Positions 25,989-33,453 of a stretch of DNA of 64,000 bases are shown piece by piece. The position numbers were made by a program, and so were the translations under genes. Source of the stretch: an uncultured Spirochaetota bacterium (GTDB taxonomy: Bacteria > Spirochaetota > Spirochaetia > SZUA-6 > Fen-1364); the NCBI GenBank assembly GCA_963781885.1, contig CAWAHW010000002.1, forward strand, positions 1,376,001-1,440,000. The letters are read 5' to 3'. Numbering within the stretch: position 1 is the first letter of the stretch; each line of letters starts with the position of its first letter. The notes under the pieces were generated by a model, which worked only from the letters and a program-made list of their open reading frames with translations, did not search any database and had not been told where the DNA came from.

Positions 25989-27377
25989 CTATTTCTTCCT
26001 TTCCTTCGACTGCACCTTCATCGTCAGGGCCTTCCCGTCTTCCGCGCGCAGGGCAAAGGATTTGCCGCGCGCATCAGGGGGAATATCCGTGAGCTTCGGG
26101 AAACGGTCCTTCTTCAGAACCCCTAGCAGGATCCTGCCGTCCTTCAGAGAGAATTTCGCGATGCTCCGGCCCGTCCTGTTGCCGACCAGCGTGAAGGCGC
26201 CCTTGCCCTCCGTGAGGAAAAGCTCGCGCCGGCCGCGCAGCGCCACAGGCGCATCGGTGAGGGGCTTGTCCTGGATGAGCACGCCGAACCGGACGGGCTT
26301 TCCCGCGGTGAGGCGCCAGATCAGATAGATCACAGCGGCAACGATGATGAGCAGGAGGACGATCGCGGCAATGAGGACGATCAGGTTGTTCTGTATCCAG
26401 CCGGCAACGGTGAAGGATACGGAAGGCTCGGCCGGAGAGAAGCTCTGGCCGGCGCCGAACGTGAAGAATATCGTTCCGCTCAGGCTCCCCGGCTGCGGTA
26501 CGGAAGGGAAGGCAAGCGGAATGGAGACGGCAGTCGACCCGATCTTCTTCACCGTGAAGGTGAAGGGGGCCTTGAGGATCTGGGGGGCGGGGGTCATGCC
26601 CGTCCGCGCCTCGATACCAACCACTGTCACCTTCGTATCGTCCTTCAACCCGCTCGATGTCAGGGTGAATGAAACGCTGCTGCTGCCGTCCGCCCTGATG
26701 GGGCTGACGCGGGCAGCGCCTTTCATCTCCACGGTGGCGAAGAGGCTGCCCGCCTGCTGGTCCATCGCGCCGACGTTCGTGATCTCGTTGTACGATCCCT
26801 GGAGCTCCTTTGCGAGATCTTTTGCCGCGGTGTCCGTTCCGATGCCGAGGATCATCACCTTCCATCCTTTTTGCTGGATGGTTTTCGTATTGGTGAGGAA
26901 CTCGTGGTTGAACTGCCCGTTCTTTGAGTAGTACTTGCTCGTGGCGGGCGCCTCCTGGATACCATCAGTCAGGAGGAGGACGTATTTCTCCCGCCCATCG
27001 GATTCCCGCGCCGCCACCTGGGCCTTCACCGCGTCGAGCGCGTTGCCGATGTCCGTGAAGGCGCCGTTCCCCTTGATGCCGGATATCAGCTTCTTCAGCG
27101 CCGTCTTGTCCGCATCGTCCTTGATCTGCTGCGAAACGATGACGTCAGCCTTTCCGTAGAACTCGACCACGATTAAATAGTCACCGGGGATGAGCAACTG
27201 GTCGACAATGGAGCTGTTGACCCACGATTCCACCGCGCCGATCTTGTTCTCCATCGACAGCGACTTGTCGAGGGCGATTACGACGTCGATGTTGCTTGTT
27301 CGGGTATCCGCCAGAAGAGGGGCCGCAAGGCCTGCGCAAAGCGCCGCGACGATCAAAAAGGCTTTCCGGACTCTCAT
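25989..27377 (-). CDS. Exported VWA-domain protein with TM anchor and cytoplasmic tail
   Basis: Signal peptide; MIDAS DKSLSM, FTDIGNAL, LLTDG; TM helix LIVLIAAIVLLLIIVAAVIYLIW. Confidence 0.88.
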   Translation of the reverse strand: MRVRKAFLIVAALCAGLAAPLLADTRTSNIDVVIALDKSLSMENKIGAVESWVNSSIVDQLLIPGDYLIVVEFYGKADVIVSQQIKDDADKTALKKLISGIKGNGAFTDIGNALDAVKAQVAARESDGREKYVLLLTDGIQEAPATSKYYSKNGQFNHEFLTNTKTIQQKGWKVMILGIGTDTAAKDLAKELQGSYNEITNVGAMDQQAGSLFATVEMKGAARVSPIRADGSSSVSFTLTSSGLKDDTKVTVVGIEARTGMTPAPQILKAPFTFTVKKIGSTAVSIPLAFPSVPQPGSLSGTIFFTFGAGQSFSPAEPSVSFTVAGWIQNNLIVLIAAIVLLLIIVAAVIYLIWRLTAGKPVRFGVLIQDKPLTDAPVALRGRRELFLTEGKGAFTLVGNRTGRSIAKFSLKDGRILLGVLKKDRFPKLTDIPPDARGKSFALRAEDGKALTMKVQSKERKK

Positions 27378-27512: not shown

Positions 27513-29546
27513 ATGGCTGCTATTGACCTTCCGAAAAGCCCGAATGTGTTCCATCCGGAAAAGCCGAGCGCCGTCGGTTCTCGAAACTCGCTGGCCCAGG
27601 AGTTCAGGGACCAGCAGGCCGAGGTCGACCTCCTCATGTCGGAAGAAGTCGACAAGGTCATGAACCATATCTCCTCCAAGCTCCCCAAGGAAGTGGCGGA
27701 CAAGCTCGACATCATGGGCGGCATCAAGGAGAAGCTGTACAACTACTTCAACCAGAACTACCAGAACATGTTCAACCGCTTCATCGTCACATCGGAAGAC
27801 GAGATGGTGAAGAAGGTCAGGAACTTCATCGACAAAGAGGAAATGAAGACCCTGGCCCGCTACACCCCCAAGGAGATCGCCGCGCTCCTGGACCAGGTCG
27901 GCGGCATCGACAAGTTCAACACGGGCGAAATCGAGAAATCGATCGTCAACATGTACGGCCATTTGCAGGGCCACATCCAGCGCGGGGTGAACGACCTTGA
28001 GAACGTCACCAACTCCCTCCTGCGCCAGAAGACGGACGTCGGCGCGTTCATCCGCGGTGAGAACGCCTATTCCATCGTGAAGTGCTCCTTCAAGGACAGC
28101 GCCTTCAAGCCGAAGACGGTCACCGACGTGAAGCTCTCCGTGAACATCCTCGACTCGGAGCTCATCAGCCCCATCTTCCACTACCAGGTGACGGTGGAGT
28201 TCCTGGTGAAGGACCTCATCTCCAAGAACATCCTCGACCTGATCGACAAGGAGATCGAGAAGCTGAAGGACCAGGTCGTTGATGAAGGGCGGGAAGAGCT
28301 CTCGGACGGCGAGATCCTCTTCGAGAAGATGAAGAGGGTGGAAAAGTTCACCTCGGATGAAAAGGACGACGCACGGTCCAAGAGGTACTCTTTCTTCGCC
28401 AAGGCTCTGATGGACAAGATCGAAGGCCTCCGCGCGGAGATCGATCCCGAGGAATATGATCCGGTGAACATCCGTGAGAACCTGAAGCGGATCATCGACA
28501 TCGAAAACATCAGGAACCGCGGCTTCAACACGGCCATCAACTCCATCACGTCCATCCTCGACACCTCGAAGATGGGCTACCAGCACGTGGAGAACCTCAA
28601 GAACGCCCGTGAGCTGATCCTCCGCGAGTATGAGGACACGGACGACGCGCACCTGCCCGACGAGCGCTACGCCATCCGGCTGAAATATTACGATCAGGCG
28701 CAGCTCCTGGAAGAGCGCAAGGCCTACGACGTGCAGGCAAAGAGCTTCGAGGTGGAAGTGCTGCACGTGTGGGACGTGCTGGACATGGTGTATGAGGATT
28801 CGAAGTTCCTGAAGGGCGTCGTGGATTTCGAAGACCTCGCGCGCAAGCTGAAGGGGAAGATCAAGAGGCGGATCAAGGCGCGCACCGGCGACCCGCTCTA
28901 TGAAGACATCGAAAAGAGCTGGACGGAAGTCACCTTCATCAAGCCGGGGGACACGGACGTCGAGCGCATGAACCGCACCTATATCTCGGAGAAGGACGAC
29001 CTGAAGCGCCGCATCATCCTGATGCGCGACAAGCTGCAGAAGCTGTATGGCTACCGCTACCCCATCCAGCGCCGCGTCATTGAAGACAGGGTCGCGTTCC
29101 TTGAAAAGCAGTTCCTCAGGTTCGAATACCTCATCAACCCGTACCACATCCAGCCGGGGCTCCTCCTGGACGTGAATATCACGTCCATCAAGAGGAAGAA
29201 GGCCACACTGGACGGAATGGCGAATGTTTTGAACGAATTCCTCTACGGCGTATCCAAGGGATTCCAGGACGCGGCATTCGCATCCTTCTCCCGCCGCCGC
29301 TCGACGGTTCGCGCGGACATCGCGCAGTCCTTTGCCGCCAGCGCGCCGGAAGCCCCGGCCGCCGAAGGCAAGAAGTCGGAGTACCTCGACATGCTCAACG
29401 TTCCGGCCGCTGATGCAAAAGTAGCAAAAGCTGCGGAGCAGGGCGTCGTCGACGTGGCACCGCGCCGCCGGCGCGGCCGCCCTGCCAAGCAGGCGCGGGG
29501 GAGGCCGCGGAAGGGCTCCGGAGACGTAGGGCTCCGAGAAATCTGA
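27513..29546 (+). CDS. cfpA: Cytoplasmic filament protein A
   Basis: N-terminus [30 protein letters not shown] matches treponemal CfpA as I recall it; 677 aa, coiled-coil rich; AGGAG SD; strongly biased codons. Confidence 0.95.
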
Positions 29547-29561
29547 TTAGGCGGGTAATCG

Positions 29562-29597
29562 AATGGTGACCCTTCGGGGTCACCATTTTCATTTCTA
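29562..29597 (+). terminator. Intrinsic terminator or stabilising hairpin after cfpA
   Basis: 11-bp stem AATGGTGACCC-TTCG-GGGTCACCATT followed by TTCATTTCT. Confidence 0.75.
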
Positions 29598-29659
29598 TCG
29601 CGCGCGTGCGCATTTTCCTTTCCAGCGCGGCGTACGCGATGAGGATAGAGGGGAAACAG

Positions 29660-30739
29660 ATGCCGGAACAAGTCCATGCTTTCGACGAGCTTGCCACACG
29701 GGACGGTTTCAACCGATCCCTCAGGCACTTCAAGTTCATTTCAACAGTCATCGGGGCTTTTGAATCGAGGCGCAACATCGCCGACACCTTGAGCGAATGC
29801 CTTGCCGACAAGAGCATCGAGCCACGGCAGGTGCTGCCGACGCTCAACGCGATCCTCGTCGACAAGTATCACTATCTCTGCCGGTCGCGAAACCTCACGG
29901 AAAGCTTCGAAGATTTCGACTCCCTCACGCAGACGGTGGGCACCTGGCGCGCGGTGGACCTCGTGGTGGCATACTTCCACCCCGAGCTCGGCGTCGTGGT
30001 CGTCAACCCGAAGAACCGCGAGCATTGGGAGGTCGTCCGCGCGCTGAAGAAGAACGAGCTTGTCGCCGTCTTCGCCGGCGCATTCGGCGAGACGGAGGAT
30101 CACGACAAGAAGTACGCCGACGCCATCACGCTCCTGATCGCCCTCATGGAGGGCGGGAAGGTGAAGACGCCGGCCGTCCTCACAAAAGGCAAGTTCGTGT
30201 TCAAGAAGGCAGCGCCCGTGGCGCCGCCGGCTCCTGCAAAGGCCCCGCGCAAGGCGACGCGGGGAAGACCCGCCAAGGCGTCGCGCATCGACCTGAGCGC
30301 CGCCGTCGCCGCGGCTCCTGCCGCGAGCCTTCCCGCGTACTCGTCGGCGCCGACGACGGCCCTCGCGCCCGCGCCGTCGGCCGCCCCCGCCGCGCCTTCC
30401 GGCGCGCCGAAAAAGATGACGCCGATGTATTCCATCCCCGTGACGAATGAGCTCTTCCACAACGGCAATGTGGAGGCGTGGAAGAAGATCATTCAGAGCT
30501 ACACCACGAAGTATCCGGGGCTGGACGTGTACGTCTTCTACGAGGGGGAACGCATCCACGACATCAACACCCTTTTCAAGTGGGGGAAGGTGAAGCACGG
30601 CAGCGCCATCATGATCGCGGTCGCCGGCGACGACATCCGGGACGTGGCGAAGCTCCAGCGCTACCTGAAGCAGGGCGCCAGCCACATGTTCGAGGCATTC
30701 CTCAAGGCGCAGGTCGGCGCGATCCTGAACCTGTTCTGA
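29660..30739 (+). CDS. cfpA-adjacent conserved protein: N-terminal domain of unknown function, Ala/Pro linker with AT-hook, C-terminal HPr-like domain
   Basis: C-terminal VTNELFH...KYPGLDVYVFYEGERI...NTLFK..GKVKHGSAIMIAVAGDD aligns by eye to HPr; GAGGG SD. Confidence 0.75.
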   Translation: MPEQVHAFDELATRDGFNRSLRHFKFISTVIGAFESRRNIADTLSECLADKSIEPRQVLPTLNAILVDKYHYLCRSRNLTESFEDFDSLTQTVGTWRAVDLVVAYFHPELGVVVVNPKNREHWEVVRALKKNELVAVFAGAFGETEDHDKKYADAITLLIALMEGGKVKTPAVLTKGKFVFKKAAPVAPPAPAKAPRKATRGRPAKASRIDLSAAVAAAPAASLPAYSSAPTTALAPAPSAAPAAPSGAPKKMTPMYSIPVTNELFHNGNVEAWKKIIQSYTTKYPGLDVYVFYEGERIHDINTLFKWGKVKHGSAIMIAVAGDDIRDVAKLQRYLKQGASHMFEAFLKAQVGAILNLF

Positions 30740-30759: not shown

Positions 30760-33405
30760 ATGAAGAAGAATATCCACTTCTTTGACCAGGGCGAAGCGAA
30801 CGTCAAACCGCAGGTTCTCGAGCGCATCGGCATCCGTGGCCGTCTTGCCATGGAGCTGGCGGATCTCGACCTGCCCATCCTGCCCGGTTTCATCATCGAC
30901 GCCGAGGTGGCGGCGCACCTGAAAGACTACGATATCTGGGCGGCGCTCTCGCCCTGGTTGGACCGGCTTGCAAAACTGACGGGAAAATCCTTCGGGGACG
31001 TGGAAAATCCGATGTTGGTGAAGATCGTCATCAGCCCCAACCTCGTCATTGCCTCCTACCCGACGCTGCACAACTTCGGGCTCACGGACACCACCGTGCC
31101 GGGATTCAACCACTATGTCGGGGAGAACTTCGGCTGGCACGAGATGCAGTTCCTCACGAGCGGAAGCCTGGAGATCGAGCTCGCCATCGCGGAGCTGGAG
31201 AACAGGGAGAAGGACGCCAAGGCGATCAAGCAGACCATCAAGGAGCTGGGCGCGGAGCTTTCCTCGGAGCGCGACTCGAAGAAGCGCAAGGAGAGCGTGG
31301 CGCGCTGCATGAAGATGCTGCCGGAGGGGTATTTCGCGGACCCCATGGACCAGCTTGTCATCGCCCTGAAGCGCATCAGCCACCTCCTGTCGATCACCGA
31401 TCAGAACCAGGAAGACACGGCGCTGATCATCCAGCCCATGGTGTACGGCAACTACGGCAAAGACTCCCTGAACGGGCAGTTCTATACCCGCAACATCGTC
31501 ACCGGGGACAAGGAGATCCAGGGCGAGTATTTCCAGAACAAGTTCAACGCCATCGGCACGGCGGGATCCGACATCTCCAACATCGCCAAGACCTATCACG
31601 CGGAGCTGGAGAAGATCGCCCGCGCCGTGGAGGACCATTTCCGGGAAATACGGTCCATCCGCTTTACCGTTGAAAACAAGAGGCTCTGGCTGATCGATCA
31701 GCGCTCCGTCATGACAAAGAGCACGCAGGCGGACATCCGCCTCCTGCTGGATCTGCATGCGCGCAAGATCGTTGATGACACCTACGTCGTGAGTCAGATC
31801 AAGCCGGGGCAGCTCAACGAGATCCTGCACCCCATCATCGATTTCACGTCGGTGAAGGGCCTGCCCTGCTTGACGGGCGGCATCACGGGTGCGCCGGGAG
31901 CCGCAATCGGCAGGATATTCTTCTCCACGGAAGGGCTCCTGGAGGCCCACAAGCTCGCCCAACAGAAGGGCCATGACACGAAGCTCATCCTCTGTCTCGT
32001 CTCGTCCTTCGCTGAGGACGTGAAGGCGATAGAAGTGGCCACCGGCGTGCTTTCCACGGAAGGCGGATACTCGGCCCATGCATCGGTCGTGGCGCGGCAG
32101 TATGGCAAGGTGTCGCTCGTCAAACCCGAGATGAGGATCAAGGGCAACAAGGCCACGATCGGGGAGCGAACAATCAAGGAGGGGGACTACATCACGCTGA
32201 ACGTCCCCTTTTACGGCGCCCCTTCCATGTACCTCGGCAAGGCGGAGCTCATCGAGCCGGATCCCGAGGAATCGGGCATGCTCGATTTCCTCGCGCTTGT
32301 GGAGAAATTCGTGAAAGGCTTCCACGTGCGGGCGAACGCGGACAAGCCGCGCGATGCCGCCCTGGCGCGCAAGTTCGGCGCAAAAGGCATCGGCCTGGTG
32401 CGCACAGAGCACATGTTCTTCGACGAGAAGCGCATCAACGTCTTCCGCGAGATGGTCCTTTCGGACTCGGTGGAGGATCGCAGGAAGGCCCTGGCGAAGC
32501 TTCTTCCCATGCAAAAGGCGGATTTCTACAAGCTGCTGAAAATCATGGAAGGCTATCCCGTCATCATCCGCCTGCTCGATGCGCCGCTGCACGAGTTCCT
32601 GCCGCACAACGACCAGGAGCTCGAGCGTTTCATGAAGTACTTGAATGTCGGAAAGACCGGCGCCAAGCGTATTCCGGAAAAGGACGTCCGCGCGCGCTCA
32701 GAGGCGCTGCACGAGTTCAACCCCATGCTGGGACACCGCGGCTGCCGCATCGCCGTTTCCTATCCCGAGATCTATGAGATGCAGGTGCGCGCGATTTTCG
32801 AGGCGGTCTACACGCTGCGTAAGGAAGGCGTGCACGTCGAGCCGGAGGTGATGATCCCGATCATCATGAACGAATCGGAGCTGAAGCTCATCGTCTATGG
32901 CAAGAAGATCGAAGGGAAGCACATCCGCGGCCTCGTCGACATCGAGCTGGAGGTACGGGAAAGCTTCAAGGCAAAACCTGCGCCCTACAAGATCGGCACG
33001 ATGGTGGAGCTGCCGGCCGCCGCGCTCGGGGCGGACCAGCTTGCGCGCTACGCGCAGTTCTTCTCCTTCGGGACGAATGACCTCACCCAGACGACAATCG
33101 GGTTGTCCCGGGACGATTTCAACGCCTTCATGCCAGACTACACCCAGTTCGACCTCCTGGAGGGGAACCCCTTCCAGATGCTCAACCCGCAGGTGCGCGA
33201 GCTGATCGCCCTGGCGGTGAAGAGGGGCAAGATGACCCGACCGGACCTCGAGGTGGGACTCTGCGGAGAGCACGGGGCGGTGCCGGACAACATCCGCTTC
33301 TGCATGGAAGCAGGGCTGGATTACGTTTCCTGCTCGCCATACCAGGTGCCACTGTCGAAGCTTGCAATCGCCCAGCTGGAGATCGAAAAGAAAGCGGCAA
33401 AATAG
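30760..33405 (+). CDS. ppdK: Pyruvate phosphate dikinase-like PEP-utilising protein with degenerate ATP-grasp domain
   Basis: Phospho-His GGYSAHASVVAR, GIGLVRTEHMF, IRLLDAPLHEF, EFNPMLGHRGCR, FSFGTNDLTQ, GLCGEHG intact; N-terminal nucleotide-binding motifs altered. Confidence 0.85.
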   Translation: MKKNIHFFDQGEANVKPQVLERIGIRGRLAMELADLDLPILPGFIIDAEVAAHLKDYDIWAALSPWLDRLAKLTGKSFGDVENPMLVKIVISPNLVIASYPTLHNFGLTDTTVPGFNHYVGENFGWHEMQFLTSGSLEIELAIAELENREKDAKAIKQTIKELGAELSSERDSKKRKESVARCMKMLPEGYFADPMDQLVIALKRISHLLSITDQNQEDTALIIQPMVYGNYGKDSLNGQFYTRNIVTGDKEIQGEYFQNKFNAIGTAGSDISNIAKTYHAELEKIARAVEDHFREIRSIRFTVENKRLWLIDQRSVMTKSTQADIRLLLDLHARKIVDDTYVVSQIKPGQLNEILHPIIDFTSVKGLPCLTGGITGAPGAAIGRIFFSTEGLLEAHKLAQQKGHDTKLILCLVSSFAEDVKAIEVATGVLSTEGGYSAHASVVARQYGKVSLVKPEMRIKGNKATIGERTIKEGDYITLNVPFYGAPSMYLGKAELIEPDPEESGMLDFLALVEKFVKGFHVRANADKPRDAALARKFGAKGIGLVRTEHMFFDEKRINVFREMVLSDSVEDRRKALAKLLPMQKADFYKLLKIMEGYPVIIRLLDAPLHEFLPHNDQELERFMKYLNVGKTGAKRIPEKDVRARSEALHEFNPMLGHRGCRIAVSYPEIYEMQVRAIFEAVYTLRKEGVHVEPEVMIPIIMNESELKLIVYGKKIEGKHIRGLVDIELEVRESFKAKPAPYKIGTMVELPAAALGADQLARYAQFFSFGTNDLTQTTIGLSRDDFNAFMPDYTQFDLLEGNPFQMLNPQVRELIALAVKRGKMTRPDLEVGLCGEHGAVPDNIRFCMEAGLDYVSCSPYQVPLSKLAIAQLEIEKKAAK

Positions 33406-33419
33406 TCCTTCGAAGTCAT

Positions 33420-33453
33420 AAAAAAACGGCCGGGAAACCGGCCGGTTTTTTTT
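33420..33453. terminator. Bidirectional intrinsic terminator
   Basis: A7-CGGCCGG-GAAA-CCGGCCG-G-T8 between convergent genes. Confidence 0.9.

Follow-up and report, generated by a model that had tools for sequence, protein, structure and literature searches.

The protein described here is encoded in a 64,000-nucleotide stretch of the genome of an uncultured Spirochaetota bacterium (assembly GCA_963781885.1, contig CAWAHW010000002.1, positions 1,376,001 to 1,440,000 of the forward strand; hereafter the window). Its gene belongs to the TP_0747 family, which is named after a gene of Treponema pallidum, and is located on the forward strand between cfpA, encoding cytoplasmic filament protein A, and ppdK, encoding pyruvate phosphate dikinase (PPDK). 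Ribbons of CfpA typify treponemes and their relatives, and we know of no established partner of the CfpA filament. Computation shows the gene and the architecture of its product, a match in fold, sequence conservation, co-occurrence with CfpA and an operon arrangement; from these we infer a two-headed adaptor of the CfpA cytoplasmic-filament system, the heads of which resemble HPr, the phosphocarrier of the sugar phosphotransferase system (PTS). We assign this reading a probability of about 0.5; the protein would bind a partner, putatively within the filament system, and would do so without phosphotransfer. The HPr-like fold of both domains offers a concrete idea of how the protein may work, and a member of the family accompanies cfpA in every CfpA-bearing genome sampled.

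The gene has one match in its own genome. The open reading frame that contains it spans 29606..30739 of the forward strand, and we placed the start at the ATG at 29660, which yields 359 residues, because all 23 aligned orthologues begin with M-[PALST]-[ED]-x at this position. The gene and the parts of its product are given below, with model confidence as the predicted local distance difference test (pLDDT).

29660..30739, forward strand: TP_0747-family gene (359 amino acids and stop; translation), single copy in the genome
29660..29866, forward strand: N-terminal helical segment (residues 1–69), with helices 7–11, 14–35, 40–49 and 55–69 in the full-length model and 10-residue pLDDT blocks of 82–91 from residue 21 onwards
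29873..30160, forward strand: first predicted HPr-like fold (residues 72–167), from the structure match of the model
30206..30409, forward strand: low-complexity tether (residues ~183–250), Ala/Pro-rich here, pLDDT below 50 over residues 188–192 and 194–249
30416..30736, forward strand: second predicted HPr-like fold (residues 253–359), from the structure match of the model
30458..30460, forward strand: codon of His267 (His15 of the C-terminal domain), directly before helix 1
30569..30571, forward strand: codon of Thr304 (Thr52 of the C-terminal domain), which opens helix 2 and is not conserved

The second of these folds is the domain of an earlier sequence-only reading of the window, which had proposed an HPr-like domain of about 105 residues at the C-terminus, aligned to HPr by eye. 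That reading located the codon of the histidine correctly, and the Ala/Pro linker of about 70 residues that it described corresponds to the tether. Its domain start at 30417 falls on the middle base of the Met253 codon (30416–30418) and is out of frame; position 30739 is the final base of the stop codon.

The last 107 residues of the protein very probably constitute a domain that folds independently, is unusually well conserved and has the HPr fold, with its helices packed against one side of a sheet of four strands. The domain was modeled using AlphaFold2 with an alignment of 83 diverse relatives (A2), selected from 125 matches to the domain by leaving out fragments and repeat proteins. The model has a mean pLDDT of 92.7 and a predicted template modeling score of 0.87, and the mean pLDDT of all five models is in the range 90.8–92.7. 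The strands (E) and helices (H) E5–8, H16–32, E37–42, E45–47, H52–55, E64–70, H77–87 and H90–95 (domain numbering) follow the order b-a-b-b-a-b-a. A Foldseek search of 350,542 PDB chains placed HPr at ranks 1–35 among the rows listed, followed by Crh at ranks 37–39; the HPr rows reach a best E-value of 4.7e-3, with probabilities of 0.84–1.00 and template modeling scores to the target of 0.50–0.68. The top 30 rows of a second structural aligner are all HPr or Crh. Across the two aligners and the two domains of the protein, the HPr matches cover 77–84 of the 83–89 target residues with a root-mean-square deviation of 2.2–2.9. The PDB rows matched by the C-terminal domain include complexes with HprK/P, CcpA, Rsd, FruR and glycogen phosphorylase. 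Additionally, a cluster named 'HPr domain-containing protein' was found at rank 3 of a protein-language-model atlas with a score of 0.80, which serves as a lead only.

In the full-length model, residues 72–167 share the HPr fold with the C-terminal domain. The mean pLDDT of this model is 68.2, and its 10-residue blocks reach 82–92 over residues 21–140. The elements of residues 72–167 follow the b-a-b-b-a-b-a order too, and HPr is their best structural match: the HPr rows obtained with VIA-align on the full-length model fell on these residues, not on the C-terminal domain. Foldseek on the full-length model returned only HPr at the top; the tool gives no ranges, and the matched domain is not distinguishable from its output. 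The HPr-like fold at the C-terminus was the idea of the sequence-only reading, whereas the second one, in the N-terminal part, is new here. What had been called an unknown N-terminal domain is catalogued in Pfam as TP_0747_N, and its best match is also HPr. The predicted architecture thus comprises a helical cap (residues 1–69), an HPr-like head (72–167), a flexible tether and a second HPr-like head (253–359). Among the listed rows of 102 orthologue linkers, the tether has a length of 40–78 residues, and its Ala and Pro content is 46–64 % in the closest loci and 14–57 % in the others.

The family is already catalogued and is uncharacterised, and with its predicted HPr-like folds a known fold appears in a context new to it. 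The protein has 2955 relatives at E ≤ 0.001, and the 120 relatives listed (57–94 % identical in the best local alignment) all carry PF27497.1. It is through this annotation of its relatives that the protein is assigned, indirectly, to the TP_0747 family. PF27497 is TP_0747_N in Pfam 38.1, and is present in 94–98 % of the members of the nearest atlas clusters. By its name, the Pfam entry describes the N-terminal part, and none is listed for the C-terminal domain. We found no paper giving the TP_0747 family, or its Treponema denticola member TDE0843, a fold or function; of the papers found, only the T. denticola array paper mentions TDE0843.

As a sequence likeness, the resemblance to HPr is not beyond chance, and by sequence the TP_0747-family protein falls outside the PTS HPr family. 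In the Pfam scan, the HPr profile PF00381 matched neither the 359-residue protein nor its last 107 residues at E ≤ 10, and a six-frame search of the bacterium's own genome with PF00381 at E ≤ 1 found only the canonical HPr (112 bits). Pfam and NCBIfam scans of the protein gave no link to HPr. No HPr was found among PDB sequences, either with the profile of the 83 relatives, the best match of which is ribosomal L23 (E 0.76), or with phmmer and the protein itself, the best match of which is a low-complexity match to bestrophin (E 0.006). The comparison by hhalign of the C-terminal domain profile with 30 spirochaete HPr sequences gave probabilities of 1.0–2.0 %, with 0.2–0.7 % for a helical region used as a control. 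The same program gave 0.6 % for the N-terminal domain against the C-terminal one, which is no sequence likeness between the two; an internal duplication was considered and is not demonstrated. The four strings on which the by-eye alignment was built (VTNELFH, KYPGLDVYVFYEGERI, NTLFK and GKVKHGSAIMIAVAGDDIRD) are all found in the translation, but the alignment to HPr is not significant by PF00381, profile search or hhalign. The proposed HPr-like domain therefore stands as a fold, recovered by two aligners from a confident model, and falls as a sequence relationship.

The lack of a sequence signal to HPr would be expected if the two had converged on a small alpha/beta sandwich of a common type, or if the likeness were an artefact of the models, and the domain had an unrelated role, for example in binding nucleic acid or a small ligand. 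The quite different gene context of the stand-alone homologues described below is also in keeping with convergence. We consider this explanation unlikely, however, because two aligners and two separate domains all gave HPr as the first match, with near-complete coverage of the target, and because all five models of the C-terminal domain are of similarly high confidence. If the fold match were convergence only, it would leave a well-conserved filament-linked protein of unknown function.

The TP_0747-family protein tracks CfpA. We sampled 121 Spirochaetota genomes across the phylum and counted the protein at E ≤ 1e-80. CfpA is present in 47 genomes and the TP_0747-family protein in 48, and all 47 CfpA genomes have both. 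The single extra genome in which CfpA was not found (G048) has the gene at a contig end. A weak match in a 49th genome (G066, E 1.8e-4) was set aside from the count. The co-occurrence holds when the two genes are unlinked: they are on separate contigs in G011, G039, G073, G115, G076, G086 and G103, and in G010 they are 7 kb apart. HPr and Enzyme I (EI)-type domains are each present in 120 of the 121 genomes, and the genome of the window itself encodes a separate HPr beside HprK, plus EI. A linkage to the PTS was rejected, since components that are near-universal cannot explain a protein found in 48 genomes; the protein occurs with CfpA, HPr and EI occur nearly everywhere, and it therefore tracks CfpA, not the PTS.

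The C-terminal domain is, in sequence comparisons, the slowest-evolving piece of the locus and is at least as conserved as CfpA. One genome per species was scanned, which yielded at least 593 related stretches; the best 80, called close loci here, are all from Spirochaetota, and conservation was measured as the tblastn best-segment identity to the window. In the close loci, the identity is 75–100 % for the C-terminal domain, 63–96 % for CfpA, 53–96 % for PPDK and 36–94 % for the N-terminal domain. The corresponding values for the phylum sample are 57–71 %, 47–71 %, 36–50 % and 31–40 %. Columns kept in at least 90 % of the 83 aligned sequences are G17, N18, E20, A21, W22, I25, Y29, L53, L80, L84, L106 and F107 (domain numbering). 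The two best-conserved stretches are H-N-G-N-x-E-A-W, where helix 1 begins, and L-F-K-W-G-K-V-K, at helix 2 and the loop after it.

The C-terminal head may dock a partner by the same face that serves HPr in all its interactions. HPr binds many unrelated proteins by one face, formed by helices 1 and 2 around His15, and we propose the corresponding face for docking because this is where the two best-conserved stretches are found, one opening helix 1 and the other at helix 2. With the flexible tether, the second head would be free to cross-link filaments or to hold a client. Bridging components have been reported on treponemal filaments by cryo-tomography. The co-transcribed PPDK is an obvious candidate for a client, and the protein possibly holds PPDK to the filament system. 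A complex prediction of PPDK (881 residues) with the C-terminal domain scored 0.00 in two runs; the controls were not folded, and the result counts for neither side.

The other features of the locus are as follows.

27513..29546, forward strand: cfpA, cytoplasmic filament protein A (677 amino acids; NCBIfam NF040882 cfpA_ASD, 1162.8 bits against a cut-off of 500)
29561..29588, forward strand: terminator-like hairpin that separates cfpA from the TP_0747-family gene; its stem has 12 pairs and leads into a T-rich tail
30760..33405, forward strand: ppdK, pyruvate phosphate dikinase (PPDK, 881 amino acids; PF02896, 1.4e-72; PF00391, 2.1e-6)
33427..33444, no strand assigned: two-way terminator-like hairpin after ppdK, with seven G-C pairs and T runs on both strands

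The gene order is well kept. In all 73 close loci that reach far enough, cfpA is upstream of the TP_0747-family gene, and the other seven of the 80 end at a contig edge. Directly downstream is ppdK, in 80 of the 80 close loci and in 28 of 30 further loci; in the remaining two, from G086 and G103, PPDK is encoded elsewhere. In the window, ppdK starts 20 nucleotides past the stop of the TP_0747-family gene, and no terminator-like site is present in these 20 nucleotides. The segment 29545–29625, which includes the hairpin after cfpA, folds with −30.3 kcal/mol (z −3.97 against shuffled sequences), and the hairpin would let the expression of cfpA far exceed that of the two downstream genes. The gene TDE0843 of T. 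denticola holds the same place between cfpA and the PPDK gene, and Table 5 of the array study lists TDE0842–44 (cfpA, conserved hypothetical, PPDK) as repressed together (PMC3914990).

The short gap to ppdK together with the hairpin after cfpA suggests that the TP_0747-family gene and ppdK form the tighter transcription unit. The protein might then be an accessory or regulatory subunit of PPDK only, tied to CfpA by shared operon history and lineage. Four loci (L119, L130, L135 and L137) fit this explanation, as they keep ppdK and have no cfpA within 1.5 kb. The genomes G086 and G103 speak against it, because they have ppdK elsewhere, yet keep the gene and cfpA. Furthermore, in the count of the 121 genomes, which covered the gene and CfpA, the gene was found only where CfpA was found, apart from the contig-end case of G048. 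A role restricted to PPDK thus appears quite improbable to us.

The position of His267 raises the question of phosphotransfer. It is residue 15 of the C-terminal domain, and is located directly ahead of helix 1 (residues 16–32) in the model, as His15 of HPr sits directly before helix 1. The site motif of HPr is His-Ala/Thr-Arg-Pro, of which Arg17 is a part, and Ser46 is a regulatory residue and the substrate of HprK/P. The sequence-only reading took conservation of the histidine among orthologues as a check on its proposal. Such conservation applies to the genome loci, all 80 close ones and all 30 from the phylum sample, but not to the family at large: it is present in 69 of 83 representatives and replaced in 14. 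By reading of the sequences, the replacements affect 10 of 11 stand-alone homologues and divergent two-domain forms, with Gln in P0214 and Asn in P0216. The closest match to the His-less two-domain P0214 among 401 genomes is only 42 % identical. The loss of Arg17 in the sequence H-N-G-N, remarked on by the same reading, was confirmed, with Gly at that position in 75 of the 83 representatives and in 110 of 110 loci. The threonine that it set at the position of Ser46, Thr304, turned out not to be conserved: the column contains 32 Ser, 20 Ala and 19 Thr in the 83 representatives, 17 Ala, 7 Thr and 6 Ser in the 30 phylum-sample loci, and 56 Thr, 16 Ser and 8 Ala in the 80 close loci. Since this column varies among Ser, Ala and Thr, a conserved regulatory Ser/Thr is ruled out there. 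The column next to the proposed Ser46 equivalent is Asn, and a low-confidence hhalign alignment sets HPr Ser46 opposite Asp49. In the N-terminal HPr-like domain, Asp85 occupies the place of the histidine, and is neither invariant nor nearly so among 23 orthologues.

PPDK is a relative of Enzyme I with a phospho-histidine domain. The C-terminal domain could therefore be imagined as a working phosphocarrier or phospho-sensor, in which His267 takes a phosphoryl group from PPDK or from the bacterium's own EI and couples the phosphoenolpyruvate (PEP)/pyruvate status to the filaments. The HPr-like fold with a His directly before helix 1, the presence of this His in all 110 genome orthologues, and the PEP-utilizers mobile domain PF00391 of PPDK are consistent with such a role, as are the EI-type domains of 120 of the 121 genomes and the position of ppdK, 20 nucleotides downstream with no terminator-like site between, and adjacent in 108 of 110 loci. 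Several properties contradict it. The position of HPr Arg17 holds an invariant Gly, and the histidine is lost in 14 of 83 representatives, including two-domain forms that keep the other motifs of the family. Most columns of the domain are invariant, so an invariant His tells little. Finally, PPDK has no match in the Pfam scan to the HPr-binding helical subdomain PF05524, and the protein tracks CfpA, not the PTS. We regard phosphotransfer through His267 as very doubtful. Even less probable, and no better than a long shot, is a mechanism in which phosphorylated PPDK or EI modifies His267 and thereby alters the binding or cross-linking of CfpA by the two heads, so that the state of PEP, pyruvate and pyrophosphate sets filament organisation or cell division; if true, an HPr-type relay would operate outside the PTS, on a cytoskeleton. 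His267 and the neighboring PPDK, itself a phospho-histidine enzyme, are a pointer to HPr chemistry that may have been reused outside sugar transport.

Returning to the two-headed adaptor without phosphotransfer, a number of results weigh against it. Sequence methods tie neither domain to HPr, nor the two domains together (hhalign 0.6–2.0 %, on a par with the 0.2–0.7 % of the control). VIA-align on the full-length model matched the C-terminal region to ferredoxin-like, KH and aIF2-alpha rows; this region is weak in that model (pLDDT blocks of 58–74), which calls for caution in the assignment of the C-terminal domain. The placement of the histidine on HPr His15 is good only to about one residue, as the aligned ranges begin at residue 1–2 of the model and residue 1 of the chain. 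A histidine that is invariant in 110 of 110 genome orthologues is what a catalytic role would lead one to expect as well, and the linkage of the gene to ppdK is tighter than that to cfpA.

The domains of the TP_0747-family protein are similar to HPr, Crh and NPr in the order of their elements, in size (about 85–105 residues) and in the best structural match of both domains, and the C-terminal domain additionally has the His directly before helix 1. The protein differs from HPr in the lack of a match to the PF00381 profile, the Gly in place of Arg17 and the absence of a conserved equivalent of Ser46. In the C-terminal domain, helix 1 exceeds that of HPr by about five residues, and there is an extra conserved C-terminal tail that ends with L-x-L-F. 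Furthermore, the predicted fold occurs twice in the same chain, which also has a helical cap and a long tether, and the protein tracks CfpA rather than the PTS. FPr and DhaM are multidomain HPr fusions that keep the PF00381 signature and the His-Ala/Thr-Arg-Pro motif and sit with PTS domains. The HPr-type fold is a module of a longer chain in FPr and DhaM, and likewise here, but neither their PF00381 signature with the His-Ala/Thr-Arg-Pro motif nor their company of PTS domains is found in this protein.

Homologues of the C-terminal domain also occur as stand-alone proteins of 108–147 residues (E 1.6e-13 to 1.1e-4, 28–37 % identity). They share the motifs G-N-x-E-A-W, S-Y and K-L-x-R and the terminal L-F with the C-terminal domain, whereas they have no N-terminal domain, and by reading of the sequences only 1 of 11 has the His. 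Myxococcota is the commonest phylum of such a stand-alone cluster in the atlas. Three stand-alone homologues from high-GC metagenome contigs (L143, L149 and L157) are in a repeated, different gene context, and no cfpA or ppdK was seen around them. All three have a gene for a UbiE/COQ5 methyltransferase directly downstream; an AICARFT_IMPCHas-like gene is upstream in L143 and L157, and an SLT/LysM lytic transglycosylase gene lies beyond the methyltransferase gene in L143 and L149. In the genome G332 (C1:2508037-2508956), the N- and C-terminal parts of the TP_0747-family protein are encoded in two separate frames of 274 and 126 residues, which may be natural or may come from a frameshift or a faulty assembly. 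Three long repeat proteins of 797, 3505 and 904 residues (P0212, P0219 and P0246) match the 107-residue domain with E-values of 1e-19 to 3e-4, the match being made up of numerous short stretches that recur. These proteins resemble translated tandem repeats rather than relatives and were treated as false positives.

The PPDK of the window has a weak Pfam match to PPDK_N (21.9 bits against a cut-off of 27) that covers only residues 274–324; because this match is weak and partial, the nucleotide-binding domain of the enzyme is taken to be divergent. A second PPDK-like gene is present in several genomes (G086, G103, G076 and G011). On the other side of the locus, a 462-residue open reading frame (25989–27377, reverse strand) is divergent from cfpA. 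Its product has a signal-peptide-like start and one hydrophobic stretch, and its position is kept in the related loci that reach that far (28–70 % identity). The basic C-terminal tail of CfpA (29400–29546) contains repeated GRP/RGR motifs resembling AT-hooks. Such motifs are found in 65 of 91 CfpA orthologue tails, and most of the tails listed end with G-L-[RK]-E-I. In 32 of 102 loci, the TP_0747-family protein likewise has GRP-like motifs in its tether.
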